DNA from: an uncultured bacterium
GTDB lineage: Bacteria; JAJVIF01; JAPKYR01
Assembly (NCBI GenBank): GCA_965371155.1
Contig: CBDUXL010000002.1
Coordinates: forward strand, 1-42,129
Direction of reading: 5' to 3'
Length of the DNA stretch: 42,129 nt
In this document: positions 12,919-32,868 of the stretch, one piece after another
How the letters are laid out: the number at the start of each line of letters is the position of its first letter
How positions within the stretch are numbered: the first letter of the stretch is position 1
Position numbers and translations under genes: made by a program
Notes under the pieces: model-generated
The model's input: the letters and a program-made list of their open reading frames with translations, nothing else
Databases searched by the model: none
What the model was told of the DNA's origin: nothing

Positions 12919-13090
12919 CAGATTGACCTCCAAAGGAACTATGGCTAATCTCTCTCTATTTCAACGTATATGATACCATCTCAGGAGGTATGCCCGCTAG
13001 CGGATATCAGGCTCCCCATCGTGCCCGTTCCCATAGACCGCCGTTTTAGGGTAGAATACGTTACCGTAATCATCGCCGACACTACGAGCC

Positions 13091-15756: not shown

Positions 15757-16854
15757 TCAACTCTCAAACAACATGTCCGCAATTCGCCAACCCTCTCCGA
15801 CAGCCTCAAGCCCGCCGGCGGTGTCTATTTTGCCGGCTTTGCTGAGCTGCGCAATATGCCCCGAGAAGGTCTGCATACCCTCGGACGCTCCGGCCTGAAT
15901 GATGTTCGGTATCTGCTCCAGTTTGTTCTCTCTGATGAGGTGACGTGCCGCATCGTTTACGATCAGAATCTCACACGCGGGAACTCTCCCTTTGCCGTCC
16001 TTCGTCGGAAGCAGAACCTGGCTGACCACACCCATGAGTGAGAGGGAAAGCTGAACCCGGATGGTCGCGCGACCGCTCGGCTCGAAAGCGTCGATTATCC
16101 GCGCCAGGCTTCCTGCCGCGCCCGAAGTATGGAGCGTGCTGTAGACCAGGTGACCCGTCTCCGCGGCACGCAACACAAGATCGATTGTTTCAAGGTCACG
16201 CATCTCACCGACCAGGAGAATGTTGGGATCCTCGCGGAGGGAATCACGAAGGGCCGATGCAAACGAGCCGGTGTGACGCCCGACCTCGCGTTGCGCCACG
16301 AGGCTGGTAAGCGGCTTGTGGATGAACTCAATCGGCTCCTCTATGGTGATGATGTGGTCGCGTCGGGTTGAATTGATGTGATGAATCAACGCGGCGAGTG
16401 TTGTGGACTTTCCGCTCCCTGCCGGACCGCAGATAATGACCAGGCCGTGCGGGAGATTGGCGAATCTCTTGATGACGGGCGGAAGGTTGAGTTCGGCGAA
16501 GGCGGGCGGGGCGGTGGGGATCCTCCTGAAGCTCGCCGCCAGACCGCCTTCGTGACGGAAGGCGTTCAACCTGAGGCGCATGTCCGGAAGTTGAATGCCG
16601 ACATCGGCGGATCCGCGTTCATCCAGGAGTGCAAGGGCGTCCCTGTCCAGAACCTCAGCCAGTATGGCTTTCAGCGTGTCGGCATCAACCGGCCCGAGGT
16701 CATCCTGCGCAGTCAAACCCGCCACAAGTCGCAGGTACGGAGGGAATCCCTCCTGCAGGTGGAGGTCGCTCGCGTTGGATTCATCCATCCTGCGGACGAG
16801 TTCAAGAAGGAGTTCCTGTCGGGGTGTCTGGTCGTTTGTGAATTCAGAAGGCAT
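15757..16854 (-). CDS. pilT: Type IV pilus retraction ATPase PilT/PilU family
   Basis: ASDLHLQEGFPPYLRL, Walker A GPAGSGKST, Asp box HIITIEEPIEF, Walker B ILLVGEMRD and His box AETGHLVYSTLHT. ATG at 16854 gives about 365 aa. The ORF-track start at 17085 overlaps the upstream gene. Confidence 0.9.
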   Translation of the reverse strand: MPSEFTNDQTPRQELLLELVRRMDESNASDLHLQEGFPPYLRLVAGLTAQDDLGPVDADTLKAILAEVLDRDALALLDERGSADVGIQLPDMRLRLNAFRHEGGLAASFRRIPTAPPAFAELNLPPVIKRFANLPHGLVIICGPAGSGKSTTLAALIHHINSTRRDHIITIEEPIEFIHKPLTSLVAQREVGRHTGSFASALRDSLREDPNILLVGEMRDLETIDLVLRAAETGHLVYSTLHTSGAAGSLARIIDAFEPSGRATIRVQLSLSLMGVVSQVLLPTKDGKGRVPACEILIVNDAARHLIRENKLEQIPNIIQAGASEGMQTFSGHIAQLSKAGKIDTAGGLEAVGEGWRIADMLFES

Positions 16855-16873
16855 AACGTTCAGGGATGAAAAC

Positions 16874-16895
16874 CCCCCGGGTATTGCACCGGGGG
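16874..16895 (-). terminator. GC-rich hairpin followed by GTTTTC just upstream of pilT (attenuator or stabiliser candidate)
   Basis: cccccgg (16874-16880) / 8-nt loop / ccggggg (16889-16895). On the minus strand it is followed by gttttcatcc and then the pilT ATG 19 nt later. Confidence 0.3.
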
Positions 16896-16945
16896 AACTA
16901 GTCAATAGGTTGGATTCACGAAACGTCCCGACTGCAGTTAACGCC

Positions 16946-18085
16946 CTAACGCCCCCTGTGATGCCGGTCCGTGACGCCGTCGTAGTGATGCTCGATAACC
17001 TCGGGCTCAGCGGGTGAATCATCGCCGACCCAGGTGTGAGTGTTCCATCGAATGCTGGCGCGCTCGTACTCATCGTGCCAGCCATGTCGATACGGATTCA
17101 GCCAGTCCGGGCGGTAGACCCACTTGTCGTGGCCAGGTCCGTGGTCGGCCCACATGCCCATGGGGAGCCAATCGGGATGGGAACCGCAAAGGTGCTCCCA
17201 GCTCGGAAGAATCCTGTCGGTCATCTCCCACACGACTTCGCTCTCAACGTCGTAAAGAAGCTCGGACTGGGACTCAAACAGCGGCCATGCCGCATCGTCG
17301 CGGGACTCGGTCGTGCCATTCCAGACCAGATCGCCGGTTTCCCCGTTATACAGGTAATACGCCACCTGCATGGTAACGCGGCGGTCTGGATTGATGAGGC
17401 CGAGGAACGGCGGGAGAAAAGTCCGCCAATCCGCATCGATATCCCGGCTGACCGCGTACTCGTTGACATAACCTCTGATGACCGCATCGGCACCCAGTTC
17501 AGATGCAATCTCCTGGATCAACTCGCCCGGGATATAATAGGTTTTATCGATTCCATAATGGCGCTCGAGGCCCGACACAACTTCCAAATGGAAACTGGTG
17601 GTCCGCTCGGCAAGGTGATCCCGAAAGAAGAGGTTATTGGCAACCGCATCATAGTAGGGGCCGCCCAGCCCAAGCATTTCGGTGAGCAGCGCCTCGGCGT
17701 CAGGCGGAGGGATAATCAGGTAGCCGCGCAGCATGAGTTCCGCGGCGAGGTTATCGAGTATCCTCCTTGGTCCGCCTGAGCTCTCCAGGACGCTTTCCCC
17801 TTGATTGGTGGGAGAAGTCATATCGACGAAGGGGAGGATGGCAATGGTGCGAACGCCTGCCATGTAGTGAATGGCATCCGCATCGAGCGTATACCAGTCC
17901 GTATGGCGCCAGTATTCCCAGGGCTGATTGTACCAACAACACTCCCAGGGTCCGTATTCGGTCGCCGCCTCCTCACCCTGGATTGCCTCGTCCACATCGA
18001 CCCCGCCATCCGCTATGGCGGGAGTCAGTGGGCCAAGGACCAGGAGAACAAGGATTAGTCCGAGTATACTTGGGTAGAATCGCAT
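16946..18085 (-). CDS. Exported protein with an LpoB/CsgG/DUF799-like core and a Trp/His-rich C-terminal tail
   Basis: AGGAG lies 10 nt upstream of ATG 18085. The signal peptide is MRFYPSILGLILVLLVLGPLTPAIA. The core pattern is TIAILPFVDMT...LAAELMLRGYLII...LGADAVIRGYVNEY...ETGDLVWNG. The tail is HPDWLPMGMWADHGPGHDKWVYRPDWLNPYRHGWHDEY...HHYDGVTDRHHRGR. Confidence 0.6.
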   Translation of the reverse strand: MRFYPSILGLILVLLVLGPLTPAIADGGVDVDEAIQGEEAATEYGPWECCWYNQPWEYWRHTDWYTLDADAIHYMAGVRTIAILPFVDMTSPTNQGESVLESSGGPRRILDNLAAELMLRGYLIIPPPDAEALLTEMLGLGGPYYDAVANNLFFRDHLAERTTSFHLEVVSGLERHYGIDKTYYIPGELIQEIASELGADAVIRGYVNEYAVSRDIDADWRTFLPPFLGLINPDRRVTMQVAYYLYNGETGDLVWNGTTESRDDAAWPLFESQSELLYDVESEVVWEMTDRILPSWEHLCGSHPDWLPMGMWADHGPGHDKWVYRPDWLNPYRHGWHDEYERASIRWNTHTWVGDDSPAEPEVIEHHYDGVTDRHHRGR

Positions 18086-18132: not shown

Positions 18133-18744
18133 CTAACCGCCGACTATCACAAGCTCAAGCTCGATGCTAAATGAGAAAGTGAACGTGTCGGAACGACCTT
18201 CTGCGTCCTCAAGCAGGTACCTGAGATTGTATGTGTAGCGCTCTCCTAAATAGTCAAGCACAGGCCTCCCGCCTTCGATATGGTAACCGATCCAGTCCTG
18301 GATTCCTGCCGGCACAGGGTAACACATCCCAAGTGCGAGTCTGGTCGTTCCCTGTGGAGGTTTGCCACTATCACAGACGTAAGTGCCCTGGACACGTTCT
18401 TTCCTGAACTGAGGACCGCCTAACCAGCTATTCGTCACTGATCCAGCGGGGATACCGCCTACGAAGACGGTCTTATTGCGACTCCATGATTCAGTCAATA
18501 TGATGCATGTGAAGTACTGGTTGGTGTGATAAGTCCGAACATCCGCGATTACATCCACACCACTAGGGGGCAGGTTGAGCGTCGGTATCAACGTTGTCAG
18601 ATCGATCGTCAGGACGACCTTCTTGTCCTCCGTCGTCGCCCAGTTAGTGATGGTCGGCCACTTGTCCTGTGGCGTGATTTCGCATCCCACCAGCATCGGG
18701 ACAATTAAGACAATAAGCGCTAGCAATGCGACGTGATATCTCAT
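18133..18744 (-). CDS. Lipoprotein of unknown function immediately downstream of the secretin gene
   Basis: ATG at 18744 has GAGG 7 nt upstream. Signal peptide and lipobox are MRYHVALLALIVLIVPMLVGC. I recognised no family motif. Confidence 0.6.
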   Translation of the reverse strand: MRYHVALLALIVLIVPMLVGCEITPQDKWPTITNWATTEDKKVVLTIDLTTLIPTLNLPPSGVDVIADVRTYHTNQYFTCIILTESWSRNKTVFVGGIPAGSVTNSWLGGPQFRKERVQGTYVCDSGKPPQGTTRLALGMCYPVPAGIQDWIGYHIEGGRPVLDYLGERYTYNLRYLLEDAEGRSDTFTFSFSIELELVIVGG

Positions 18745-18794
18745 TTTGACACCTCGGGTCTGGTGCAATTCAATAACGGCCTTTGCCGCCGGAA

Positions 18795-21700
18795 TCAGTA
18801 TCGTTCCCTCCCTACAGGCAACGGCACATCGAAATCCTCATCAGTCAAGACCTCGGGCAGATGCATAACCGGCTTGATCAGGTGCGGAGTGAACACGAAG
18901 ATCAGCTCACTCTTGACTTTCTGTATTTCCCGGCTACGGAACAGGTGGCCAATCAACGGGAGGTCGCTAAGGAACGGGAAGCGGTCATAGTTGACACGCT
19001 CTTCATCCCGAATAAAGCCACCGATGATAAACGGCTCGCCATCCTGAACCCGGACGGTCGTATTGAAGGACTGGTCAACGGTGCGCGGACCGATGTCGGT
19101 CAACTCGAGAAGGTTCCTGTTTTCAGGGGTAAGGACAATAGTAACCGAATCGTCCGGATTCGCATGGGCAGTGAATCTAAGCGTAAGGCCAAGCTGCTGC
19201 TGGTCAATACGCTGTGTAACCCTGCCGAGATCGCTGACCTGATAGGTCGACCTGTATGGAATCGTCTCCCCCACGCGCAAGCTACCGGTCTGGTTGTTGG
19301 CGACGGTCAGCGTCGAACGGTTCATCAATTCTGCATAGCCTTCTTCGAGCAGGTAGTTGATCGTGTAGTTGATATTCCACTGGTTTGGGCTACCCATAGA
19401 AACGGGCCGGTAGAAGCCCTGCGGCAACGGTCCCGCATTTGGATTGAGGCCAACCTTCTCGAAGAATGTCAACGCCGTCATACCCGTGTTGCCACCGGTT
19501 GATATGTCGAAATCGAATCCGAAGTTCTGGTTGTCGGTTAGCGAGGTGCTGATAATCTGGAAATCGACCTGGATCATCACCGGCGCCTGATCGATAGCCG
19601 CAATCACCCTGTAGGCGCGCTCAAGGTCGCGCTCATCGCCACTCAGAATGACACGTTCTTCTGCGACCTTGACACCACCATAAATGCCGCCTCCACCGCC
19701 AGCGGAGTAGATCTGTATCTGATCGCCGGAAAGGATACCCATTCCGGTGAGGATGCGCCTGACCTGATCGGCAACTGCATAACTCAACCTGATATACCAG
19801 GTCGGCCAGACATCCCTGAATCGAGCCTGCAGATCCTGCGAGTCACCGAAGATGTATACACCATGTCGGACGACATAGGTGAATCCCATATTAGCGCCGA
19901 GCAGGTCGAGCAAGTCGAAGAGCTCTATGTCGGTAAGGCTGATAGTGAGGCTGCCCTGGACTTCAGGGTTGATCATAATATCCAGGCCGGCTCTCTCACC
20001 AATCAACTGTAGAACATCACGAATATTCGCATTATCCAGCCTCATGCTGAGTCTCCGGCTGGGTGCCTCGAGTTCAGATATTATCTCCTGTGTTTCAGCT
20101 TCATCCGGACCAACCACTGGAACGGGTTGAGGCACAACCGGCATAATCTCATACTCAGGAAGCACGAAATCCTCGGCTGCGGGACCGGCGACCTCGGGCG
20201 CGGCCCAGCTTTCAAACGGGCTCTCGCCACCCGCCCCGTACACCGCGATTATCCACTCATCGCCGCGAGCCTGCACATCGAACTCGATGAACTCGGTGGA
20301 CTCTATCGTGTGTGTGTAGATGCTCAGGATGGTGAATGAGGTGTCGAGGCTTGCAGTAGATGTAACCGTCAAGTGATCCATCCATGCACCATCGACAACC
20401 TGTTCGTATCTCTGCGGGTGAGTGCCCGGAAGCGACGGGCGGCTGTTGCGAAGCTTAACCTGAATCTTCGGCGGGAAGTTAACGGGCATCACTTCCCAGT
20501 CTTCCACCAGACCGGTGGCATTCAGCCGCAACACATCCGCGTCGCCCATTCGCTCGAACGAGATTCCGGTGATCAGGACGCCATCGAATGGCTCTTCCCA
20601 TTGGTCGGGTTCATCGACACGAATCTCAACCGTGGCGATTGCCTCAAATTCGGGAACCTCAGGCTCCTCTTCGGTCTGCGCAATGACCGGCTCGCTGATT
20701 ATCTCCGGACCGCTGATTTCCTCGTACACGGCCTCAGTCTCCGGTTCCTCAACCGGCACCGGCTCAAGCGCCTCGGTCTCGTCACTCTCGATCGCGAACT
20801 CGAAGCTCTCATCTTCCTCTGCCGACGGTGCGTCAGCGATGAGTACAGGCTCCTCAATCTCCGATTCCTCCACTACAGCGGTACCCTGTTCTTCGACTAT
20901 CTCTTCCTCGATTTCAGGCTTAGCCTCGACCTCAGGTTCTTCTGCCTCGACTATCTTTTCCTCGATGACCTCAGGCTCCGCGATAGCCTCAACCTTAACC
21001 TCGGCTTCGGCGGTTTCCTCTGTTTCCTCGATTTCAGGCTCAGTTTCGACCGTAGGCTCCTCAACTTCAGCCTCGGGCTTTTCTTCAGTCACAGGCTCTG
21101 CGAGAACCTCGACCTCGACCTCCGTAACCGGAGCCGGCTCCATAGCAACGGTGGTCTCCGGAACAGGCTCCACAGTGACCGTCGGTTCGACGGCAGGCTC
21201 GGTGGGAAGGGGTTCCTCAATTACTTCAGGAAGCGGGATGTATCGGAAAGCCACAAGAAGCTCATTTTCACCATCAGGGACTAATTCCTTCTCGAATTCC
21301 TCAAATGCTCCCTCGAGCGTAAATGTGACCGTGGTGTACTGAGCGTCCTCGGTGTCCTTGACGATCGCGCGCACCAGGGGAATCCTGGAGACGTGAGTAT
21401 GAGCGGTGTAGACACCCGCTTCCTCATCCAGAAGCTCAATCTCGGAGAGCGGAAAACGCAGACCGAGGCGATCCGGATACTTGAAATGAATCACTCCAGG
21501 CTCAGGCATCGGCTCAGAGGCAACTATCCTGAAGCTGATTTCGTCTCCGTCGGCCTTTTCAAGCAAGACCCGAATCGTCGGGAGAGACCCCGGAGAGTCA
21601 AACGGCGGAGCGCCCGGCGCCATGGGGGTGCCGGCATCCTCCGCAATTTCGGGTTCTGTTTCTTCGACAGGCTCAGGGATAGTCTCCTCGACGGCCTCTT

Positions 21701-23717
21701 CAGCAGGCTCTAAGACAGGCTCCGGCTCTTCGGCAAGCTCGGGACCAGGCTCTTCGACAAGCTCAAGACTGGGCTTGATCGGTTCAGCCGGCAGGGGAAC
21801 ATGCTGGAAAGCCAGTGTCATCTCGGTGCCGTTCCAGTCGAGCTCGGTATCGAATTCCTCAAGGCTGCCATCGAGAGTGAACAGGAGTGTGGTGTGCTGC
21901 TCGTCCTCGCGATCCTTGATAATCGCCCTGACACTCGGTACGGCGCGGATCTGGGTGTTGGTTGTGTACACACCCTGACCGGCGTCGAGCAGCTCGACAT
22001 CAGCCAGAGGGAACCGTAAGCCGACTCTGTCGGGATAGTGGTACTCGACCACCTCAGGCATGGGTAACTGCTCTGACGTGGTAATATGGAAAACGACATT
22101 ACCGCCGATTATTTCACCGCCAACCAGGCAAACAGTCGCTCCCTCAGCAACCTCAGGAGCTGGCTCTTCAGCAGGCTTCGGCTCCTCAACAGGCCCGGGA
22201 ACAGGCTCTTCGATTGCTTCCGGAGCCGGTTCCTCAATTGGCTCGACCTCGATATCCTCTGCAGGGACTTCGATGTCCTCTACTTCCACTTCCACCTCTA
22301 TAATTTCCGGCGCTTCGACAAGCTCAGGATGGGACCCATCCTCAAGCTCGGGAATGCTGAGATTGACCTCGATCGGGCTTTCGATATCGATCGGAACTGA
22401 TGTGGCAAAGAAATCGACGTGGAGTTCACCCTCATCGACGTAGTCCAGAGTAAAATCAATATTCTCCCGCGCAGTCTCCGGGAAGTAGAATACAAACTGA
22501 CACTCGGGACCGACATCCTCGATTACTCGGTTGAAGACTTTGAGCTCGGAAGCTACCAGTCCAGCCACAGGCGTCTGGAACCGGTCGCCTGCATCTTCCG
22601 GAAGGACAACTGCAGCGTCGGGGAAGCTGAAAGCGATCCTTGTAGGATAGTTGAGCCGCTGAGGGGTTCGAGCCTCAAGGACTCCGCCTTCGTAATAAAT
22701 ATAGAACCGATCTATGCCGCCATCAATTGTTTGAAATTGGACCCTATGGATTCGGATCGGTGCGTCCGCCGGTGTGGGGATATCGTCGGATGAGGCCAGC
22801 ACCATGATCTGGCTGCCCTCAGTGGGAACGGGAGGCGTCGTATCCGACAGTTCCTCGGCCGGTTGAGGCTCAAGGGATCTCTCATGGAAAAGGATCAGCT
22901 CGAGCGTATCCTCCGAATCGGTCCGGAGCGTATAGCCGAGAATAGAAGTGTCATCAATCGTCAGCCGGACCTCGGTATCCACGCTGCCACTTAGAGCAAG
23001 GCGCTCCGCGCGCATCCTCTCGACAATGTGGCCATCAACACCGGTGGCAAAGTTTGTCGGATCCGATGCGGGGAGGAGTATGTCGGTGCCCGGGAACCTG
23101 AGAAGAATCACTGTGGGACTCTCGATACGAATCTGAGGCAACACGACACCATATGAGAAAACGATAAGGAATCGGTCACGACCGCCCTCAGCTCTCTCGT
23201 GCCAAAGGTCCTCGATGGTCGGGATAGCGTGGTCCGGCGGAAGACCCGGACCAAAATCCACAAGAGGGTTTTCCCCGCGGAACACCGCCAGCTTGAGACC
23301 ATCAGCGGTGTTGGCGCGGGCACAGCCGAGCGTCGGATCATTGACTTCGGCTACTATCCTGACCACGGGAGGCTCAGTGGAGAACTGGGTGATTTCGAGC
23401 GAGGTCACGCCGGTAATCGGCGCTTTCCACACTGTGACGGCTTCCTCATCCAGAACGAGGAGAGAATCCTCGATATCGAAGACCAGCCTGTAAGGGGAGG
23501 TCAGGGTGAACGACCGGATACCCACGGTTCTCGACATGGCGAGGTCGACAATAACAGCACCATCTGTCACTTCGACACTTGCGGACCTCACCTCCGCAGG
23601 CCCGGACGGCTCTTCGGCCCTGAGGGATCCCAGGGACGATATGAGCAACAGGACCAGGAGGAGTAATACGCCTCGTGGTGTTTTGTGTTTGCTCTCGAAC
23701 TGGTGCGCGATTCTCAT
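18795..23717 (-). CDS. pilQ: Giant PilQ-type secretin: six AMIN-like modules, three acidic linkers, N0/N1 domains and a C-terminal secretin domain
   Basis: The C-terminus has the secretin pattern (VMIQVDFQIISTSLTDNQNFGFDF ... GEPFIIGGFIRDEER...FPFLSDLPLIGHLFRS...SELIFVFTPHLI). The N0-like domain is LSMRLDNANIRDVLQLIGERAGLDIMINPEVQGSLTISL. AMIN-like cores are SFTLTSPYRLVFDIEDS, ESPTVILLRFPGTDILLP, LNYPTRIAFSFPDAAVVLP, YHYPDRVGLRFPLADVELL, FKYPDRLGLRFPLSEIELL and VNFPPKIQVKLRNSRPSLP. ATG at 23717 gives the signal peptide MRIAHQFESKHKTPRGVLLLLVLLLISSLGSLRA. Confidence 0.9.
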   Translation of the reverse strand: MRIAHQFESKHKTPRGVLLLLVLLLISSLGSLRAEEPSGPAEVRSASVEVTDGAVIVDLAMSRTVGIRSFTLTSPYRLVFDIEDSLLVLDEEAVTVWKAPITGVTSLEITQFSTEPPVVRIVAEVNDPTLGCARANTADGLKLAVFRGENPLVDFGPGLPPDHAIPTIEDLWHERAEGGRDRFLIVFSYGVVLPQIRIESPTVILLRFPGTDILLPASDPTNFATGVDGHIVERMRAERLALSGSVDTEVRLTIDDTSILGYTLRTDSEDTLELILFHERSLEPQPAEELSDTTPPVPTEGSQIMVLASSDDIPTPADAPIRIHRVQFQTIDGGIDRFYIYYEGGVLEARTPQRLNYPTRIAFSFPDAAVVLPEDAGDRFQTPVAGLVASELKVFNRVIEDVGPECQFVFYFPETARENIDFTLDYVDEGELHVDFFATSVPIDIESPIEVNLSIPELEDGSHPELVEAPEIIEVEVEVEDIEVPAEDIEVEPIEEPAPEAIEEPVPGPVEEPKPAEEPAPEVAEGATVCLVGGEIIGGNVVFHITTSEQLPMPEVVEYHYPDRVGLRFPLADVELLDAGQGVYTTNTQIRAVPSVRAIIKDREDEQHTTLLFTLDGSLEEFDTELDWNGTEMTLAFQHVPLPAEPIKPSLELVEEPGPELAEEPEPVLEPAEEAVEETIPEPVEETEPEIAEDAGTPMAPGAPPFDSPGSLPTIRVLLEKADGDEISFRIVASEPMPEPGVIHFKYPDRLGLRFPLSEIELLDEEAGVYTAHTHVSRIPLVRAIVKDTEDAQYTTVTFTLEGAFEEFEKELVPDGENELLVAFRYIPLPEVIEEPLPTEPAVEPTVTVEPVPETTVAMEPAPVTEVEVEVLAEPVTEEKPEAEVEEPTVETEPEIEETEETAEAEVKVEAIAEPEVIEEKIVEAEEPEVEAKPEIEEEIVEEQGTAVVEESEIEEPVLIADAPSAEEDESFEFAIESDETEALEPVPVEEPETEAVYEEISGPEIISEPVIAQTEEEPEVPEFEAIATVEIRVDEPDQWEEPFDGVLITGISFERMGDADVLRLNATGLVEDWEVMPVNFPPKIQVKLRNSRPSLPGTHPQRYEQVVDGAWMDHLTVTSTASLDTSFTILSIYTHTIESTEFIEFDVQARGDEWIIAVYGAGGESPFESWAAPEVAGPAAEDFVLPEYEIMPVVPQPVPVVGPDEAETQEIISELEAPSRRLSMRLDNANIRDVLQLIGERAGLDIMINPEVQGSLTISLTDIELFDLLDLLGANMGFTYVVRHGVYIFGDSQDLQARFRDVWPTWYIRLSYAVADQVRRILTGMGILSGDQIQIYSAGGGGGIYGGVKVAEERVILSGDERDLERAYRVIAAIDQAPVMIQVDFQIISTSLTDNQNFGFDFDISTGGNTGMTALTFFEKVGLNPNAGPLPQGFYRPVSMGSPNQWNINYTINYLLEEGYAELMNRSTLTVANNQTGSLRVGETIPYRSTYQVSDLGRVTQRIDQQQLGLTLRFTAHANPDDSVTIVLTPENRNLLELTDIGPRTVDQSFNTTVRVQDGEPFIIGGFIRDEERVNYDRFPFLSDLPLIGHLFRSREIQKVKSELIFVFTPHLIKPVMHLPEVLTDEDFDVPLPVGRERY
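20592..21227 (-). repeat. Low-complexity polyacidic (E/P/V/T/A-rich) linker of about 210 aa inside pilQ
   Basis: Residues ~857-1068 of the 1666-aa ORF-track translation, for example EVIEEPLPTEPAVEPTV...EVEEPTVETEPEIEETEETAEAEVKVEAIAEPEVIEEKIVEAEEPEVEAKPEIEEEIVEE. The DNA shows periodic ctc/ttc/ctcgac/ggctc motifs. Confidence 0.85.
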
Positions 23718-23845
23718 TAGAGGGCCTTGGCTCCTTGATGGCTTCCTGCCGGGCAACACACGAACAGTCAAGGATGATAAATATCCATGCCGCAAAGCTG
23801 GTCTATTTCAATGGTTGTCACTCTTTACTAATGTCACGCAATTAC

Positions 23846-24817
23846 CTAATAAAATGAGATTGAAATCCCGGAAATCCCGGGGTCGCTCTCGGTGAACAAA
23901 ATCGGCGCCCGGTCGCCGGACCGCGTTTCATTCGCTATCACAACCGCGCTCATGGTTATCTCTTCAACAACGAAAGATGTTCTCTCAGTCGCTTCGACCA
24001 CATCACCGACCTGAAACAAGCGCTGTTGACCGCCTCCGGCGATAATGGCCCTGTAGTTACCCGGTTCGCCGATAATGCCCACGATGGTCAGCATCCGAGC
24101 AACTTGACCTGCGGTAGGCTCATCAGGTGAGACTGGACCTTCACCGAGATCCAGGGGTGGAAACGGCGGAATCGAATGAATCGGCCCCGGTATCGTTCCA
24201 CCATCTCTTCCAAGGGCATCGAACGGGCTGTAGCGTCGCATGCCGGAATCCCAGGCCGGCACTTCATCCCCTACAGGATCCGGCGTTGGCGGGCTGGTCA
24301 TGACCTGGAAACGCCTTAAAATGGGCATCATCAGATCGGCTATCCTGGCTTCCCCACGCACCTCAGGCACCAGCATCAGGGCCTCCCGCAGCTCTTCATC
24401 CTCCATGTCCCTGAAGTCTTGGCCGCCCAGCCCTTCATACGAGATGTAATAGGTTGGCAACTCTACTCCGCCTGCAATCGAGACCTGAGCGGCTTCCGCC
24501 GACTCACCGGGAGGGAGTTCCTCCGGGATTTCAATCCCCGGTATCCCTTCAGCTTCTTGTTCCCGTACGGCCTCCTCGGCCATCTGCTCGGCGGCGGTGT
24601 CAAGACTTGACGCGCCTCCGTGTTCGGTAATGGTTTCAGCAACGCTTTCACCGATCCGAACAGGATTAACCTGAGCCCTGGCGGATTCGAGGACGCCGAA
24701 TCCGGGCTGGAACAGTACGAAGTAGCCGGCAATAGCCAGCACGAAGACGGCGGCATACCCAAAATAGCGAGCATGCGAACTGCGATCATCCGGTTGTGGA
24801 GCTTTTTGTTCGTTCAT
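23846..24817 (-). CDS. pilP: PilP-like protein (enlarged, 323 aa)
   Basis: N-terminal TM segment YFGYAAVFVLAIAGYFVLF, an acidic/Pro-rich middle, and a C-terminal PilP-type beta domain LTIVGIIGEPGNYRAIIAGGGQQRLFQVGDVVE...FVVEEITMSAVVI. It sits between pilO and pilQ. Confidence 0.7.
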   Translation of the reverse strand: MNEQKAPQPDDRSSHARYFGYAAVFVLAIAGYFVLFQPGFGVLESARAQVNPVRIGESVAETITEHGGASSLDTAAEQMAEEAVREQEAEGIPGIEIPEELPPGESAEAAQVSIAGGVELPTYYISYEGLGGQDFRDMEDEELREALMLVPEVRGEARIADLMMPILRRFQVMTSPPTPDPVGDEVPAWDSGMRRYSPFDALGRDGGTIPGPIHSIPPFPPLDLGEGPVSPDEPTAGQVARMLTIVGIIGEPGNYRAIIAGGGQQRLFQVGDVVEATERTSFVVEEITMSAVVIANETRSGDRAPILFTESDPGISGISISFY

Positions 24818-24895: not shown

Positions 24896-25732
24896 CTAAA
24901 TCGCCTCGTCCGTTTCATCGACCCCATCCGCTCCGTCTTCAACGGAAACAACCCTTCCGTCCCGATGAGCCACCCAAAGCGGAGGGGGATCATTTGCATC
25001 GCCGAATGTCAAAAGTGTGAAATGGGCGGCATACTGGCGCATCGATCCGCTCCCGGCGCCCTGGGGCGCCATTTGGAAACTGACCAACGCAGTATGCGGC
25101 CGCATGTTGAAGATCTCGTATGTGAATCTCTTTATGTCCTTGTAGGTTCCGCGAACGGTCATGCGGAAGGAGTGCGTTTCTATTCCACCGGCGATTGCCG
25201 CATAATTCTCACCCTCAGTGCCAAGCTCCTGATAGAACCTGAAACTGACCAGCAGGTTCTGCATCTGGTCCATATTGTTCTCGAACATCTGCAGGGCGGA
25301 CATAATTTGGTCCAGCCGCCCCTGAAGCTCGGACGGGTCGGATGAGAAGGCCTCCTTGAAATTGGTCCCGGCTCCCGGCGCGGTAACGCCCAATATGGCG
25401 ACACCATCGGTATCGAGGTTATTGTCAGTCAACATAATGTGAATCGTGCTGAGATAGCTGGTCAGAACGAACTCGTCGGCTTCAGGGATAAGGTTGCGGA
25501 TGGTTTCCATGTCCTGCAGTTGGACCGTACGAATCTGCCTGAGCAGGTCCTTGTACCTCAACAGATCGATAAGCGCCTGGGCGATGGTGTTTTGGGTCGC
25601 CAATTCTGCCTGCCTGTTAGCGATGGTTCGAACGAAAAAGCGGTGGGCGGTCATGTTGTAGGCCACCTGCAACAGAAGGCAGACAACGATAACCACGGCG
25701 ATTTTAATTGCTATTTTCGCATATGGATTCAC
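24896..25732 (-). CDS. pilO: PilO-like protein
   Basis: N-terminal TM segment IAIKIAVVIVVCLLLQVAY, a coiled-coil region, and a C-terminal ferredoxin-like pattern HSFRMTVRGTYKDIKRFTYEIFNMRPHTALVSFQMAP. The gene order also supports the call. Confidence 0.7.
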   Translation of the reverse strand: MNPYAKIAIKIAVVIVVCLLLQVAYNMTAHRFFVRTIANRQAELATQNTIAQALIDLLRYKDLLRQIRTVQLQDMETIRNLIPEADEFVLTSYLSTIHIMLTDNNLDTDGVAILGVTAPGAGTNFKEAFSSDPSELQGRLDQIMSALQMFENNMDQMQNLLVSFRFYQELGTEGENYAAIAGGIETHSFRMTVRGTYKDIKRFTYEIFNMRPHTALVSFQMAPQGAGSGSMRQYAAHFTLLTFGDANDPPPLWVAHRDGRVVSVEDGADGVDETDEAI

Positions 25733-25762: not shown

Positions 25763-26350
25763 CTAATCAGGGAACTTGACCTCCACATGAATCTGGAAAC
25801 TGGCGGCAGGACTGCCTCCCACGTTTATCCTCTGGTAGCCTGCCATGCGTATGTTGCGGAATCGCGTTGGTTCCTCAGGCGAGCCTTTCAGTCGATCGTA
25901 GGTTCTCAAGGGTCCATTGAAACCGTAGCCCCTTGACAGGCAGTCGACCACCACATCCGGCCACTTGCTGCCGCGTGAGCGACGAAAGGTCAAGTTTACA
26001 AGCCATGTGTCTTCAGGCAGGAGTCTCTCTATTTCATTGTAAATCTCCCAGTAGTCCGGAGCCTGAAGCACCATTCGAGGGATGACGGCAATATAGCTCC
26101 GAATAAAACGCGCGTTCGCCTGGACCTCAATAAACTCCTCAACCTGTTCCATACGCTCATGATTTGCCGCGGTTTTGGCTTCCAGCTCGTCCTTCAGGTC
26201 TTTGGCTTGCCTGGTTTCAGCCTGGAACTGCAGCCAGACAAAAAGCAGGGTTGCGATTAACAAGGCCGCGGCAAAAACCGGGAAGGCCTTGAACTCAGGC
26301 TCAGGCAAATACTCCTCAGGAAGGAGGTTGATTAATCGATCTCTATCCAA
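25763..26350 (-). CDS. pilN: PilN-like protein
   Basis: The conserved INLLP motif is at the N-terminus (MDRDRLINLLPEEY), followed by one TM segment FPVFAAALLIATLLFVWLQF. TTG start, with an 8-nt overlap with pilM. Confidence 0.8.
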   Translation of the reverse strand: MDRDRLINLLPEEYLPEPEFKAFPVFAAALLIATLLFVWLQFQAETRQAKDLKDELEAKTAANHERMEQVEEFIEVQANARFIRSYIAVIPRMVLQAPDYWEIYNEIERLLPEDTWLVNLTFRRSRGSKWPDVVVDCLSRGYGFNGPLRTYDRLKGSPEEPTRFRNIRMAGYQRINVGGSPAASFQIHVEVKFPD

Positions 26351-27560
26351 CCTGATGAATCCCCCTCAAAGCCAGGCCCACGGCACAACTGAAGTCCGGG
26401 GCGAAATCGCGTACCAGGTCTTCTCGAATGCCGCTCTCAGCCACACTGAGACCCGAGAGCGGGTCGCCGGAAATAACAGGTATTCCCAGCTTTTCCGACA
26501 TCGATCTAATAAACTGCTCCCCGTAAGGGAAGTAGCCATCAAGGACCCCGAACGCGATCTCAGACCGCTCCTTGCCGAAGGACTGGCCGTAGCGGATGGT
26601 GTTCAGGGTCTCATCGACAAGCTCAGTCATCAAGGGATTCAGCCTGGCAAGTTCATCACGATCCCCGATCCCCTCACGCGCCAGAGCCTCATCCCGCGCG
26701 GACATCTCGGCCGAAAACGGGTCCTCACCAAACGACCCAAACTCCAGATCCTCTTCACCGCGCCGCCCGATGCCGAGGTCTTCCTCCTCGGATCCTACAC
26801 GGGCAGCATGTTCCGCCATTCCGTCCGCGCCCAGGCCCGCGTCGAACAGGTGCTTCTCGCCGAGCGCGTCCACAAATCCAACGCTTCCAATCGGAATCGA
26901 GCGGAGTATCCTGACCTGCCCATCAAATACCACCGTCAGGTCGGTGCACCTATCGTTGATGGTTATGAGAATGTACTCTCCACCGCGCTCCTGAATCTTG
27001 GGGGACCGCCTCTCGGCGCGATGCGCCGCAACAGGTGTGAGATCCAGAGCTGCTGGACGCAGCCCCGCCTCCAGCATTGCCTCAACCAGAAGACCCAACG
27101 GCTGTTTCTGGGCCGAGAGGATGAGAACCTCGACTTTTTCCGTGTTGTCATCTTCGCTGACGTATGTGCGGAGGATCGCGTAGTCCAGCACATTGTCGCC
27201 GGTTCCCGACGGGAGGCTGGCCTCGGTCTCGAACAGGATTGCTTTCCTGAGCTCGCGGATAGGCATGTTAGGGAGGTTGATAGTGCGGGCGATGGTTTCG
27301 GATCCATCCACGGCGGCCAGCGCGATTTTGGTTCTGATGCGGTTGGCCTGGATCATACGAGCAAGTGCGGAGGCCAGAGCTCCCGGGTTCTCCAGCCGGT
27401 TGCCGATATAGGCCTCCGGCGGTGTTTCCTCCCATAGTATCTGGGTAACCAGGGGCTCTCGCGCGGTTCGCTCTATCTCGACAATCTTCACCTGCGCAGG
27501 CCCCACATGGATACCCAGCGCACGCCTGGGGGCAACATTTATAAACGGTAACGGTGTCAC
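26343..27560 (-). CDS. pilM: PilM-like actin-fold protein
   Basis: About 400 aa with an N-terminal phosphate-1-like LGIHVGPAQVKIVEIE. It lies directly upstream of, and overlaps, the INLLP-motif pilN. GTG start per the ORF track. Confidence 0.75.
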   Translation of the reverse strand: MTPLPFINVAPRRALGIHVGPAQVKIVEIERTAREPLVTQILWEETPPEAYIGNRLENPGALASALARMIQANRIRTKIALAAVDGSETIARTINLPNMPIRELRKAILFETEASLPSGTGDNVLDYAILRTYVSEDDNTEKVEVLILSAQKQPLGLLVEAMLEAGLRPAALDLTPVAAHRAERRSPKIQERGGEYILITINDRCTDLTVVFDGQVRILRSIPIGSVGFVDALGEKHLFDAGLGADGMAEHAARVGSEEEDLGIGRRGEEDLEFGSFGEDPFSAEMSARDEALAREGIGDRDELARLNPLMTELVDETLNTIRYGQSFGKERSEIAFGVLDGYFPYGEQFIRSMSEKLGIPVISGDPLSGLSVAESGIREDLVRDFAPDFSCAVGLALRGIHQVG

Positions 27561-27847: not shown

Positions 27848-28468
27848 CTAGTCTTCCGCCCCGCCTCTACGGGATACGAAGAGGTTAAAAAGCCTGAAAT
27901 CCGTTCCCTCAGGGCCCCTTCTCGGTCGGACCGCGACCCAGCCGGAATCCGGATTGGTCCCTATAGCCAGCAAATCACGCTGGAAGTTGTACGGGTGGAA
28001 AATAATAAAATATGTACTCGCCCGAGAAGTGGTCGGGTCGTACGGATTGAACTCGACAATTTCAACTGCATAATCCTGTGTTATACCGAACAGGTAGCCG
28101 GTGGACTCATCGTATTCATCTTGACTGCCGTCTTCAATTGCCCTGAAGTAACCCGGCAGATAGTCCTCCGTCACCATGAAATCCACCAGTTCCTTTGGGG
28201 ACTGAAATTCCTCATCCAACCCCCACTGCGGGTACTCAAGATAATGGTAATAATACATTTCATACCCGGTAGCGAACGAATCCAGCGCACCAAGAGCATT
28301 GGTCTCCACTACCTGAGTCCGCATACGACCGATCAGGGCGAAGGAAATGGCGGCCAGGATGGAGATAATACCGCAAACGACAAGAAGCTCGGCGAGAGTG
28401 TATCCTCTCTTGCTGTTTGGCGGTAAAGGGAAAACCCAATGGTCTCTATATCGACTCAATATCTCCAA
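27848..28468 (-). CDS. Type IV pilin-like protein, tandem paralog 1 of 12 (window order)
   Basis: ...NSKRG|YTLAELLVVCGIISILAAISFALI, a prepilin cleavage/methylation motif with Glu5. There is no ATG after the upstream stop. In-frame TTG codons lie at 28468 and 28459, so the start is uncertain. Confidence 0.7.
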   Translation of the reverse strand: MEILSRYRDHWVFPLPPNSKRGYTLAELLVVCGIISILAAISFALIGRMRTQVVETNALGALDSFATGYEMYYYHYLEYPQWGLDEEFQSPKELVDFMVTEDYLPGYFRAIEDGSQDEYDESTGYLFGITQDYAVEIVEFNPYDPTTSRASTYFIIFHPYNFQRDLLAIGTNPDSGWVAVRPRRGPEGTDFRLFNLFVSRRGGAED

Positions 28469-28490
28469 ACCTTGATTCTTTCCAACCCGG

Positions 28491-29075
28491 CTAGTCAGGC
28501 AATATGTAGATGCTGATGCTGTATCGCCCGGTCCGTCCGATCTTCCTGGGCAGCGGACCCGGGTAGTTGCTGAACATCCTGGGTCCCTGAATGACCACCA
28601 GTCCCCGCTTCGCAATTGACCCCTCGTAGGGAATCATCGCAATGGCATAGGTGTTCCTGTAGCCCATACCGGGAACAACGCCGTAATCGGCGGGATAGAT
28701 GCTCATCCGATAGCCCCTGGCGAAGAGATCCCGTCTGTCATGAAGTTCCCTGGAGTACCTGTGGGGCACGAGGCTGTAAAGCCTCAGTTGATCCCAGAGA
28801 GGCTCCGGGGCAGAGAATTCCACGTCTTCGGTAATCGTCCCATCCGATAGGTAGTTGGGATACCTATGGCCGTACTGCGCGTAGTAGTTCTCGTAGGCCA
28901 TGCTCATCATGTTGAGCGCCCTGATTGCCTCGACCTCATACACCTTCTCACGACTTCGTCTGAGAAGGGCGATAGGCATAGTGGCGATGATGAGCAGAAG
29001 CCCGGTCACTATGAGCATCTCCACGAGCGAATAACCCGCTGAGGGCCGTATGTCGTTATCCGAACGATGCAACAT
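28491..29075 (-). CDS. Type IV pilin-like protein, tandem paralog 2 of 12
   Basis: MLHRSDNDIRPSAG|YSLVEMLIVTGLLLIIATMPIALL. Confidence 0.8.
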   Translation of the reverse strand: MLHRSDNDIRPSAGYSLVEMLIVTGLLLIIATMPIALLRRSREKVYEVEAIRALNMMSMAYENYYAQYGHRYPNYLSDGTITEDVEFSAPEPLWDQLRLYSLVPHRYSRELHDRRDLFARGYRMSIYPADYGVVPGMGYRNTYAIAMIPYEGSIAKRGLVVIQGPRMFSNYPGPLPRKIGRTGRYSISIYILPD

Positions 29076-29096
29076 CTTCCGACACCATATCCCGCA

Positions 29097-29543
29097 TCAC
29101 CTGACAGGTTCCCAATTGTCATACATCGGTATGCCGTCGTCCGAGATTATGAACGTACTCAGACGGAGAGTATGATCAGTTGGATATGCGTAAACGGTGT
29201 AGCGCTGGGCCTGATAGGCGGTAGCCATGGCGATAGAGTAGTTCTCGATAAAGAAGTGCTTGTGTCCCTCAGCTCCCCAGCCGGAGTATGCCCGGGGCAG
29301 GTAGTCATCCAGTTCCGACCAGTTATCGGTATAGGCGAAGTTATCACGGTAGTACATCTCCTCAGCATCGGTGAGGCTTCTGAGGGCTTTGACACAGGCC
29401 GCTTGCAGCGCGCTTTTCCGGGAACCGGCCAGGGATGGAATCGCGATGGCAGCCAGGATACCGATAATGCTGGCAACCACGAGGACCTCGACAAGCGTAA
29501 AACCCAGCGAATCGCGTTCCTCATTTTTCAGGCATCTCAACAT
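29097..29543 (-). CDS. Type IV pilin-like protein, tandem paralog 3 of 12
   Basis: MLRCLKNEERDSLG|FTLVEVLVVASIIGILAAIAIPSL. GGAGG lies 6 nt upstream of ATG 29543. The ORF-track start is 29624. Confidence 0.8.
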   Translation of the reverse strand: MLRCLKNEERDSLGFTLVEVLVVASIIGILAAIAIPSLAGSRKSALQAACVKALRSLTDAEEMYYRDNFAYTDNWSELDDYLPRAYSGWGAEGHKHFFIENYSIAMATAYQAQRYTVYAYPTDHTLRLSTFIISDDGIPMYDNWEPVR

Positions 29544-29631
29544 TTCTTGCCTCCGCACCCGGTACTCAGCCGGGCGCCGCTGCGTCCCTTGGTTGGACGC
29601 TTGCTTTCCTTTTTCCCCGCCCACCCGCTAT

Positions 29632-30132
29632 TTAATCCTTGAACAAGGTCGAGAAAAATTTGCCATGATTGTGCGAATCCAGAATGCTCCCGTCGCATGT
29701 CACTGCGTACGTCCTCAAGTGCCAGATGGACCTTTCAGCCGGGAAAGCCACCGCGGTAAAAGATTGGCGATGCTCGGGCACCAGGAAAAAAATAGTGTAG
29801 AGATTGGCGATCGGAGTATCTCTCGGATTGGACAGGTCATCGTCTTTGTCATAACCCGGGTCCACCAGATCCTCTTCGCGCTTCATCTCCTCCCAGTACC
29901 CGTACTCGCCGTGGCGCTGATAGTAAAGGACCTCATTCTCGCCGATGTTCTTCATGGCGGCGATCGCGCGCGTCTCGAATGCGATGCGCTTCGCACCCCG
30001 GGTGCTCACCACAGCCATCGATGCGAGGATAACAATAATGATGGCAACCATCAATACCTCGATCAGCGTGAAACCCTTCTGTTGAGCGCCCTCATCGAGT
30101 CCAGGCTCTCTCATGTCCTCAGGATCTGACAT
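29632..30132 (-). CDS. Type IV pilin-like protein, tandem paralog 4 of 12
   Basis: MSDPEDMREPGLDEGAQQKG|FTLIEVLMVAIIIVILASMAVVS. There is a purine-rich GGGAAGGAAAG upstream of ATG 30132. Alternative ATG at 30162. Confidence 0.8.
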   Translation of the reverse strand: MSDPEDMREPGLDEGAQQKGFTLIEVLMVAIIIVILASMAVVSTRGAKRIAFETRAIAAMKNIGENEVLYYQRHGEYGYWEEMKREEDLVDPGYDKDDDLSNPRDTPIANLYTIFFLVPEHRQSFTAVAFPAERSIWHLRTYAVTCDGSILDSHNHGKFFSTLFKD

Positions 30133-30163
30133 CACTTTTCTTTCCTTCCCGCCGTGTGCCATC

Positions 30164-30649
30164 TCAGTATGGTGACCAGTTTGCCAAGGTGTGCACTATT
30201 TGCACGCCTCCGGAATCCGTAATCACGAAGGTCTTCAGCTCCGGGATTCGCGGGACGGCGAAGACCGTATAGCTGTGAACGGAGAAATTGGTGATGGGCG
30301 GGCGGGGACCGCCACCACCGCCGCGGATCCAGTGAAGCGAGTAGTTCTTGACAAACACGTACTGGTCCGCGTCTTGCTCGTAGGCGCGCGGCAGGTAGGT
30401 CCTCGCCAGAGCGCTGAACCCGAGGGCATAGCGCCCATTGTCGATGTAGAAAATCTCCTGGGCGCTCGCAATTGCCTTAAGGCCCGTTGCAGCGCCGGTT
30501 TCGAGTGTTTTGTAGCGCGCCTGGGACATGCTCGCGATTGCCAAAGTGGAAAGGATCGCTATCAGAGTAGCCACCAGGACCATCTCGATCAGGGTGAATC
30601 CTGATTCGTCCTTGTCAGCGCGCTCGGGTTTATCTGGATTCCGGTTCAT
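30164..30649 (-). CDS. Type IV pilin-like protein, tandem paralog 5 of 12
   Basis: MNRNPDKPERADKDESG|FTLIEMVLVATLIAILSTLAIASM. Alternative start at 30673. Confidence 0.8.
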   Translation of the reverse strand: MNRNPDKPERADKDESGFTLIEMVLVATLIAILSTLAIASMSQARYKTLETGAATGLKAIASAQEIFYIDNGRYALGFSALARTYLPRAYEQDADQYVFVKNYSLHWIRGGGGGPRPPITNFSVHSYTVFAVPRIPELKTFVITDSGGVQIVHTLANWSPY

Positions 30650-30709
30650 GGTTGTCTTACCTTTTCCCGCCACGACATTTACAGCCGGTCTAATGGTCGG
30701 GAACCAGGC

Positions 30710-31222
30710 CTAAATCGGCCTCCACTGCGTTATCCCTTGTGAATATCTCCGACCCTCGACAACTCCCCTGTCGGTAATTCTGAGTTCCAGCCAGTCGCTG
30801 ATTTCGTACCGATGGCGATAGATGCCCTTCGCCCTGATCGAGTAGCGCTGCGGGGTAATCGGGTTCACATACCAGAAGCACGTGAAGCCCTGGACAAACG
30901 CAATTGAGCGCTCCTTGATGGGCGAATCGGAGAGAACGAAGTCGGGATCGATGTAGCTCGGTTGAAGGCCGCCAAAGTCGAGCGCGTAATAGCCGTTGTC
31001 GTTGTAGAACGCTTCCAGGGCGGACGCCAGTTGTTTCATCTGATGCATGCCCTGGGTTTCCAGCGCCCGTTGCCGCGCCTTACGGAATGAGGCAAACCCG
31101 AAGGTGGCGATGACGGCGATAATCAGCGCCACGGTCAGCACCTCGACCAGCGTGAAACCGGTTTCATGCTTCTCTTCGACCTTCAATTTCTCTATCTCAG
31201 CTATTTCAGCCATAATGGCCAT
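30710..31222 (-). CDS. Type IV pilin-like protein, tandem paralog 6 of 12
   Basis: MAIMAEIAEIEKLKVEEKHETG|FTLVEVLTVALIIAVIATFGFASF. The ORF-track start at 31315 overlaps the upstream gene, so ATG at 31222 or 31213 is more likely. Confidence 0.75.
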   Translation of the reverse strand: MAIMAEIAEIEKLKVEEKHETGFTLVEVLTVALIIAVIATFGFASFRKARQRALETQGMHQMKQLASALEAFYNDNGYYALDFGGLQPSYIDPDFVLSDSPIKERSIAFVQGFTCFWYVNPITPQRYSIRAKGIYRHRYEISDWLELRITDRGVVEGRRYSQGITQWRPI

Positions 31223-31259
31223 CCCGGGCCCGCCCTGACATTCAGTATGATATAGAGCA

Positions 31260-31754
31260 TCAACGAGGCACCCAATTGATGCCATCGCGTGTCTGCTCGA
31301 CTGTTCCGTCCTCAAATATCCTGAACGTGTGCAGGTTCAATGAGTTGCCTGCGTCCGGGAATGCGACGTAGGCAAACCCGTAAGTGAAATCCTTGAAAGT
31401 ATCTCTCACGAAAAAGTGGATGGAGTAATGTTTCGCCATGCGCTCGCGATCGGTGATACCGTGCTTTCGCCAGTGAGAGTTGACGAACTCTCGCTGGCGG
31501 AGACCCTCAAAGGAGGTGAAGTGCCTGAATACGCTTCTGTACCCGATCTCAGCCGAGCCGAGCGCGTTCAAAGCCTTAATTGCCCCAAGCTCGTAAGCGG
31601 ATCGTTTCACCCCGCTCAATTGAGGAAGCGCCATGGCCACGATCACCGTGATAATCGAAACCACCAGGAGGATTTCAAGCAGCGTGAATCCGCGACCTTC
31701 CTCTTTTTCATCCGACCTTTCGACCGGGATCTCATTCAGCATATTTCCGCGCAT
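31260..31754 (-). CDS. Type IV pilin-like protein, tandem paralog 7 of 12
   Basis: MRGNMLNEIPVERSDEKEEGRG|FTLLEILLVVSIITVIVAMALPQL. Confidence 0.8.
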   Translation of the reverse strand: MRGNMLNEIPVERSDEKEEGRGFTLLEILLVVSIITVIVAMALPQLSGVKRSAYELGAIKALNALGSAEIGYRSVFRHFTSFEGLRQREFVNSHWRKHGITDRERMAKHYSIHFFVRDTFKDFTYGFAYVAFPDAGNSLNLHTFRIFEDGTVEQTRDGINWVPR

Positions 31755-31811
31755 GGTTTTTCTCCGTCTGTCGACAAACCAGCTATCAAACGCAACTGCC
31801 GATTGCCCGCC

Positions 31812-32348: not shown

Positions 32349-32376
32349 GTCCCAGCCGTAAGAATTGTCCTGTCAC

Positions 32377-32868
32377 TCAGTAAATCGCAATCGGCCACAG
32401 CGTATTTGTGTCACGTACGACGCCGTCATTGATGATAAGAAACGTCTTGAGATCGAGACCGCGTTCGATCGGCCAGGCAACGATAGAGTAATTCTGCGGG
32501 TACTCGCCAATATTAATCAATTGTATCGAGTAGCCCTTGATGAAGTAACCGCGCCGTCCCGAAAGTCTGTTATACGCCTTCGCATCAATTGCATCACACC
32601 GCCTCAAGTCGTGCCACTGGTCATGACCGGCGGTGTAGCACTGGTAAACCTGGTAGTACAGCTCCTCCGCCTCAGCCAGTTGTTTGAGACCGTGAACCGC
32701 CCCGGTCTCAAGCGCATTCCGCCTGGCATGCTGGAGGTTGGGAATAGCCATGACGGCCAGAATGCCTATCAGGCCGACAGCGAGCATGATCTCAAGCATC
32801 GTATAACCACGAGCATCCTGATGGTCCTCGGATTCAAGTGGCGTCTTTATTTCCTGCGAATCAGCCAT
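32377..32868 (-). CDS. Type IV pilin-like protein, tandem paralog 9 of 12
   Basis: MADSQEIKTPLESEDHQDARG|YTMLEIMLAVGLIGILAVMAIPNL. Confidence 0.8.
   Translation of the reverse strand: MADSQEIKTPLESEDHQDARGYTMLEIMLAVGLIGILAVMAIPNLQHARRNALETGAVHGLKQLAEAEELYYQVYQCYTAGHDQWHDLRRCDAIDAKAYNRLSGRRGYFIKGYSIQLINIGEYPQNYSIVAWPIERGLDLKTFLIINDGVVRDTNTLWPIAIY

Follow-up and report, generated by a model that had tools for sequence, protein, structure and literature searches.

The window analysed here is a stretch of 42,129 nucleotides of contig CBDUXL010000002.1 (assembly GCA_965371155.1) from an uncultured bacterium, and the gene in question encodes a giant secretin of the PilQ type, about twice the usual size of such proteins, with six folded modules ahead of its channel. 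The gene lies on the minus strand, as do all features described below, at 18795..23717 (coordinates include the stop codon), and encodes 1640 amino acids (aa). It occupies most of an uninterrupted open reading frame (ORF), 18795..23795, which counts 1666 aa from its first TTG according to the ORF list and its translation. The start was set at the ATG at 23717, since M1, R2, I3 and A4 are nearly invariant among 16 aligned family members, and the first 26 residues of the maximal TTG frame are common to no homologue. A typical Sec signal peptide was read directly from the sequence at aa 1-33 (23619..23717, LLLLVLLLISSLGSLRA/EE); following the MRIA start the N-terminus reads MRIAHQFESKHKTPRGVLLLLVLLLISSLGSLRA/EE. 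Residues A34 and G39 are invariant across the family alignment.

The N0-N1-secretin channel block occupies aa 1221-1615 (18873..20057). The secretin domain (PF00263, aa 1458-1615) scores 120.3 bits against a Pfam cutoff of 27.5, which places the protein in the secretin superfamily; the scores of Secretin_N (aa 1308-1379) and GspD-N0 (aa 1227-1268) are under their cutoffs in the Pfam and NCBIfam scans. The PilQ model TIGR02515 reaches 125.5 bits, below its curated cutoff of 284.35, and aligns over positions 2-428 of its 428, along aa 1221-1615. Given this end-to-end alignment, the secretin is judged to be a divergent member of PilQ rather than a non-member. The placement of these models confines the channel to the last ~420 residues, as the first-pass annotation had proposed, and a single N1 domain is present in the 1640 aa.

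Between the signal peptide and the channel lie six modules, whose borders were drawn from composition and self-comparison of the protein. These are m1 (aa 40-150, 23268..23600), m2 (aa 160-291, 22845..23240), m3 (aa 315-450, 22368..22775), m4 (aa 522-646, 21780..22154), m5 (aa 708-833, 21219..21596) and m6 (aa 1035-1170, 20208..20615). Their existence as six folded units ahead of N0, claimed in the first-pass annotation, is upheld by composition, self-comparison and profile comparison. All six AMIN-type cores quoted there were found, at residues 74, 200, 357, 561, 747 and 1081, although the m2 core, SPTVILLRF, has a V at the position taken by R or K in the other five. The pattern [SYF]-P-x-[RKV]-[IVL]-x-[FLV]-x-[FILV] was counted 6 times where 0.04 were expected (no more than 2 in any of 5000 shuffles), and its strict P-x-[RK] form 5 times where 0.15 were expected.

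The modules are separated, in order from m1 to m6, by linkers of 9, 23, 71, 61 and 201 residues, ~365 in total. Three of these were delineated by composition: an acidic E/P/V-rich linker at aa 451-521 (22155..22367), an acidic E/P-rich linker at aa 647-707 (21597..21779), and a polyanionic E/P/V/I linker of ~200 aa at aa 834-1034 (20616..21218), in which ~40% of residues are D or E. Overall the linkers consist of ~34% D+E, 16% P, 19% V+I and 2% K+R. The whole region of aa 34-1215 contains 269 D+E against 62 K+R, which gives each chain a net charge of about -207. The m5-m6 linker ranges from 44 to 201 aa in homologues, while the modules hold 50-60% identity; conserved modules with drifting linker lengths fit folded binding units on flexible tethers. 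A tandem-repeat search of the gene DNA found trivial arrays of 6-24 bp only, so the linkers do not appear to be recent repeat expansions. In one homologue (P0004), a tandem (PVIEPVVEE)n expansion was seen within the m2-m3 linker.

The first module, judged from its sequence, is a canonical AMIN domain. The Pfam AMIN model PF11741 (cutoff 20.5) gives it 33.8 bits within the full-length protein and 28.9 bits as an isolated module. The family definition of de Souza et al. (2008) asks for an Rxxx-acidic signature in the second strand of the strand pairs, most pronounced in pairs 2 and 3 (PMC2572700); m1 alone agrees with it, with Rxxx[DE] conserved twice (RLVFD and RIVAE). The other modules fall into two classes, m2/m3/m6 and m4/m5. 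Modules m4 and m5 are 51% identical and are aligned by hhalign with a probability of 100%. Within the other class, hhalign gave 96.7% for m2 and m3, 93.4% for m3 and m6, and 88.7% for m2 and m6. The class profiles A2 and A3 match each other over 110 columns (91.9%, E 6.8e-7, hhalign), which joins m2 to m6 into one diverged family. Against the sequences of the PDB, class profile A2 found no match, and A3 found non-significant matches only, among them residues 26-78 of Neisseria meningitidis PilQ (E 0.8).

The fold of the divergent modules was predicted with AlphaFold2 from an m4/m5 alignment led by m5 of the window and an m2/m3/m6 alignment led by m3 of the window. Both models are ten-strand sandwiches, with mean confidence (pLDDT) of 95.2 for m5 and 90.8 for m3. 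In Foldseek the m5 model matched the B2 domain of N. meningitidis PilQ (4aqz, TMq 0.62), 4av2 (0.61) and Myxococcus xanthus PilQ (3jc8, 0.63), all with a probability of 1.0, and every other match in the PDB had a TM below 0.46. For the m3 model, a TM above 0.5 together with a probability of 1.0 was obtained only for AmiC of Escherichia coli (4bin, TMq 0.55) and PilQ B2 (4aqz, 0.58). Its other matches had TM below 0.35, including nominally higher-ranked matches to green fluorescent protein with a TM of ~0.2. Both models are therefore closer to solved AMIN domains than to other beta-sandwiches, and the non-AMIN structure that the first-pass annotation had named as grounds for abandoning its proposal was not obtained for these two modules. 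AMIN is also the commonest, though weak, Pfam match among the m2/m3/m6 modules of the family. Modules m2 to m6 are accordingly described as divergent AMIN-fold modules missed by current family models: m3 and m5 as modelled AMIN-fold sandwiches, m4 as an AMIN-fold module through its similarity to m5 and the hhalign result, m6 as AMIN-like through hhalign to m3 and m2, and m2 as AMIN-like through hhalign and a sub-cutoff AMIN match of 13.7 bits.

The secretin belongs to a small family. A search of 5.8 billion proteins recovered 15 relatives of 1475-1763 aa with 44-57% identity, several of them collinear over the full length, and in the 16-member alignment conservation extends to the start, the channel and each of the module cores. 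Nine related loci were recovered from GTDB species genomes, with full-length matches in four of these genomes. An exhaustive HMMER search with the m2/m3/m6 profile against 1.84 billion cluster representatives gave 28 proteins at E ≤ 0.001. All seven long matches that were checked (1026-1695 aa) are secretins; in another, P0043 (1056 aa), a secretin domain was not detected. Every match from this search whose source was looked up came from a metagenome or a metagenome-assembled genome (MAG). The number of modules in relatives varies from 4 to 7: P0004 and P0005 have three copies of the m4/m5 type and thus seven modules each, and a distant relative of 1266 aa with 28% identity (L009, 9848-13648) has four. 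Two further proteins, P0027 (1695 aa) and P0025 (1658 aa), contain an extra mid-protein STN domain (~aa 830-925) besides the channel-proximal N0, which suggests another architecture. The closest matches outside the family are PilQ proteins of ~1000 aa with two recognised AMIN stretches, or secretins with 5-6 Secretin_N domains.

The lineage itself appears to be deep. The chorismate synthase encoded in the window is 55-66% identical to relatives inside the clade and at most 49% identical to those outside it (labelled Acidobacteriota or Terriglobia), a drop that indicates a deep and uncultured clade. Of the nine related genome records, four bear the label Planctomycetota and the rest simply "bacterium", a phylum label that is second-hand and comes from record titles only. 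The expansion of the secretin is found only in this small uncultured clade. In several relatives chorismate synthase shares contigs with pilQ, so that wider synteny is conserved. In the window it lies in the region 578-9430, together with shikimate dehydrogenase, a flavin adenine dinucleotide (FAD) oxidoreductase with Fe-S and CCG-domain partners, and subunits of a 2-oxoacid:ferredoxin oxidoreductase. The 2-oxoacid:ferredoxin oxidoreductase and the CCG/Fe-S genes suggest that the organism may be an anaerobe.

The genes around the secretin form a pilus assembly locus. Upstream of it lies PilM (405 aa, 26343..27560), recognised by Pfam PilM_2 with 66 bits and by TIGR01175 with 119.9 bits, under its cutoff of 133. 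It is followed by three membrane-anchored ORFs that are assigned to PilN, PilO and PilP by position and weak hints from hidden Markov models (HMMs). The PilN candidate (195 aa, 25763..26350) has a weak Pfam PilN match (E 0.15) and is of ordinary length. The PilO candidate (278 aa, 24896..25732) has an N-terminal transmembrane segment and gave no significant HMM match in the Pfam and NCBIfam scans; it is ~70-100 aa longer than usual, and the lengthening holds across the clade. The PilP candidate (323 aa, 23846..24817) has a weak T2SSC/GspC match at aa 253-297 (E 0.06). It is laid out as a transmembrane anchor (aa 19-37), an acidic disordered tether of ~200 aa and a short C-terminal beta domain, with the transmembrane helix in place of a lipobox. 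The first-pass annotation had described PilP and PilO as enlarged; the ORFs exist and are long, through the PilP linker and the added length of PilO, but their identities rest on position and weak models.

Directly downstream of pilQ lies a lipoprotein gene of ~200 aa (18133..18768, MRYHVALLALIVLIVPMLVGC, lipobox LVGC), for which no Pfam or NCBIfam family was matched. An ORF of 192-221 aa stands at its position in all related loci, and the protein may be a pilotin lacking tetratricopeptide repeats or another partner of the secretin. Next is a secreted, W/H/D-rich protein of 379 aa (16946..18085) with a faint FlgT_M-like match (E 0.13), whose counterpart in relatives is a 430-454-aa ORF between the lipoprotein and pilT. 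The 3' end of its gene overlaps the start of the annotated PilT ORF, which has an N-terminal extension of ~90 aa. This last gene (15757..17085) encodes a retraction ATPase of the PilT/PilU family, with 389 bits against the TIGR01420 cutoff of 319. Six related loci have the same gene order as the window: small pilins, pilM, pilN, pilO, pilP, the giant secretin, a ~200-aa ORF, a ~430-aa ORF and pilT. The sizes in these loci are 400-423 aa for pilM, 195-232 for pilN, 278-310 for pilO and 264-332 for pilP (a 171-aa ORF in L006). Ahead of pilM, at 27848-39482, lies an unusually large battery of pilin-like genes, with about ten ORFs of 160-255 aa and two giant ones, 526 and 879 aa long, whose N-termini are prepilin/GspK-like; in the related loci, too, pilM is preceded by a row of ORFs of ~160-200 aa. 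Beyond pilT, at 10243-12933, an 896-aa protein has PQQ/BamB-like beta-propeller repeats in its C-terminal part, besides an N-terminal portion of ~560 aa.

The neighbourhood assigns the gene to a type IVa pilus (T4aP) machine: PilM, a PilT-family ATPase and prepilin motifs are nearby, and PilN, PilO and PilP are present by position. With a probability of roughly 60%, the product is the outer-membrane secretin PilQ of such a machine, with an N-terminus that serves as a multivalent, long-reach anchor to the cell wall. The usual multimeric gated channel would be built from the last ~420 residues (N0, one N1 and the secretin domain). The first ~1180 residues of the mature protein would be strung out in the periplasm, the six AMIN-fold modules alternating like beads with acidic proline-rich linkers. 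The modules would have arisen by duplication and divergence into the three classes m1, m2/m3/m6 and m4/m5. They are proposed to bind the peptidoglycan layer and thereby to position and hold the secretin in the wall, as AMIN domains do in other PilQ proteins. Binding to septal or polar peptidoglycan has been reported for the AMIN domains of both PilQ and AmiC, as has a need for these domains in the localisation of PilQ (PMC10653833, PMC5285504). The wall-anchor reading is based on this binding and on the requirement of the domains for PilQ recruitment (PMC10653833), and the AMIN fold of the modules, their conservation and the flexible tethers agree with it. From simple geometry, six modules of ~3-4 nm and ~365 linker residues would give a reach of several tens of nanometres. 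Every ring subunit might in this way take hold of the wall in several places or far from the channel. We infer peptidoglycan binding by any of the modules, its multivalency and a link to envelope width by analogy with these proteins, and binding at six points would be an extrapolation.

Several observations weigh against this interpretation. At the level of sequence, PF11741 did not match m3, m4, m5 or m6 when these were scanned singly at E ≤ 10, and m2 alone reached only 13.7 bits (E 0.067, under the cutoff of 20.5); the Pfam "AMIN-like" model PF24837 found nothing in the whole protein or the single modules at E ≤ 10. Across the family a weak AMIN match (E < 1) was found in 5 of 40 m2/m3/m6 modules, the best with E 0.0054, and in none of the 31 m4/m5 modules. 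The Rxxx-acidic signature occurs once each in m2 and m3, at non-equivalent or partial positions, and is missing at the expected strands of m4, m5 and m6. Module m1 could not be linked to m2-m6 by sequence: comparison of class profiles in hhalign gave E 0.007-0.065 with probabilities below 6%, and pairwise comparison of m1 with the other modules gave 0.2-30%, highest for m1 and m3. The fold models cover m3 and m5, and m2, m4 and m6 are tied in through hhalign homology only. The Foldseek E-values are modest (0.005-0.02) in a crowded beta-sandwich fold space. So extreme a negative charge, moreover, is foreign to the AMIN regions that have been characterised, and another or a further role may lie behind it. 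The description of all six modules as AMIN-like thus stands for m1 by Pfam and for m3 and m5 by modelled fold, and falls short at the level of family models, which m2 reaches only below cutoff and m3-m6 fail, and of the signature, which is full only in m1.

These points bear on two other accounts of the N-terminal region. It is possible, though on balance rather unlikely, that m2-m6 have lost peptidoglycan binding and serve as rigid spacers or as docking sites for partners such as the lipoprotein and the 379-454-aa periplasmic protein. Aided by the proline-rich linkers and the long tether of PilP, these modules would then fit the machine to a periplasm that is unusually wide or variable. The loss of the AMIN signature and of HMM recognition in m3-m6 speaks for this, as do the two envelope proteins without a family that are conserved beside pilQ, the ~200-aa linker of the PilP candidate, and the longer PilO across the clade; the latter two also lend some support to the wide or multilayered periplasm suggested in the first-pass annotation. 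So does the title of four of the nine related MAG records, since an enlarged periplasm has been reported for Planctomycetota (PMC5394234). That label, however, is taken from the titles of records alone, relatives of the chorismate synthase outside the clade reach 49% identity at most, and PilN is ordinary in length. The AMIN array lies N-terminal to N0 and so is off the axis from outer membrane to inner membrane in known machines. In those machines the AMIN domains fold back to the wall and do not span the periplasm. A further and unlikely account holds that the functional novelty resides in the linkers, whose E/D/P-rich ~365 residues would bring about -200 charges per chain, thousands per ring, and form a cation-binding or repulsive periplasmic skirt merely punctuated by the sandwiches. 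The acidic excess over aa 34-1215 favours it, as does the composition of the linkers, which in each of the 16 homologues are 18-34% D+E and 16-23% P and in most have hardly any K or R. Set against it are the poor conservation of linker length and sequence beside conserved modules, the 6-8% K/R in the linkers of two homologues, and the fact that acidic proline-rich spacers are commonly passive tethers, as in TonB-like proteins.

The remaining doubts concern the identity of the gene. Some database records name the relatives "GspD/PulD (secretin)", and the GspD model TIGR02517 scores 124.7 bits, near the 125.5 of the PilQ model, both under their cutoffs; the 879-aa pilin-like ORF also has a GspK-like N-terminus. 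A secretin of a type II secretion system (T2SS) is nevertheless very improbable. The gene is preceded by pilM and three genes in the positions of pilN, pilO and pilP, and a retraction ATPase above cutoff for the PilT family follows two genes downstream. The PilQ model aligns end to end, GspD only over its C-terminal half, and one N1 domain with an AMIN N-terminus is the style of T4aP secretins. The GspD identity was rejected on gene context, and the locus is regarded, from its gene content, as T4aP and not T2SS despite the names given to relatives. A frameshift or chimeric join merging separate genes, raised in the first-pass annotation as a possible source of the great length, is hardly credible. 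The 15 homologues come from independent JGI, ENA, NCBI and Logan assemblies, three of them cover 100% of the query, full-length matches are present in the four GTDB genomes, and the start and all module cores are conserved in the family. With homologues collinear over the full length and the order pilM-N-O-P-Q-lipoprotein-x-pilT conserved, an artefact of this kind was rejected and the ~1640-aa secretin is accepted as a single genuine protein.

Comparison with known systems places the wall-anchored PilQ proposed here within a familiar plan. M. xanthus PilQ likewise serves a T4aP; its gene follows pilMNOP, several AMIN domains stand in tandem at its N-terminus before N0-N1-secretin, and m5 superposes on its architectural model 3jc8 with TMq 0.63. 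Polar recruitment and multimerisation of this PilQ depend on its AMIN domains (PMC10653833). It differs in having three AMIN domains against six modules (4-7 in relatives) in the 1640 aa described here, of which five are too divergent for the Pfam AMIN model, and the linkers of the present protein are far longer and polyanionic. The length of M. xanthus PilQ is ~900 aa. The B1/B2 domains of N. meningitidis PilQ (4aqz, 4av2) resemble both modelled modules, 4aqz being the best structural match to m5 and m3 alike, whereas the PilQ proteins of N. meningitidis and Pseudomonas aeruginosa have two AMIN domains each, with 9-10% sequence identity to the modules of this family. AmiC of E. coli, the archetype of septal peptidoglycan targeting by AMIN, shares its fold with m3 but carries a single AMIN domain fused to an amidase, with canonical Rxxx signatures that are largely missing from m3-m6. 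Secretins may exceed 1000 aa in another way, as in Thermus-type PilQ, a long secretin built from repeated ring domains. In P0019 and P0020, which have 5-6 Secretin_N domains, the channel stack is lengthened by N1-type domains, while in the present protein there is one N1 and the tethered AMIN array is extended. The proline-rich periplasmic spacers of TonB-type proteins are analogous extended segments; the Glu/Pro-rich low-complexity linkers are likewise probably extended and could cover tens of nanometres, but they are not homologous, have no Lys-Pro half and are interspersed with folded modules.

In a survey of PilQ from model species, the number of AMIN domains ran from zero to three (PMC10653833). 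No published description of this giant secretin family was found, including in the literature on planctomycete PilQ and crateriform secretins. Planctomycetes have been described with an enlarged periplasm and with pilus-bearing "crateriform", press-stud-like complexes joining outer and inner membrane, in an account that does not give their protein composition (PMC5394234). As a long shot, the giant secretin, the long-tethered PilP, the lipoprotein and the pilin battery might together form an envelope-spanning pilus base for an enlarged or variable periplasm and so be a candidate for these complexes; the polyanionic multi-AMIN array would then stitch outer membrane, wall and inner membrane together.

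In the giant secretin the AMIN array has expanded and diverged to an extreme degree, within a system of a known type. The place and manner in which pilus machines are installed in the cell wall are believed to be set by AMIN domains. The presence of 4-7 AMIN-fold modules per subunit on long acidic tethers, most of them beyond the reach of the Pfam model, widens the known architecture of secretins. The new sequence classes, confidently modelled with an AMIN fold, could improve domain models. In this clade nature also provides a way to see whether the number of AMIN copies follows the geometry of the wall or of the periplasm. If it is true that the organisms are planctomycetes with enlarged periplasms, the locus would be a candidate for a trans-envelope machine that copes with that geometry.

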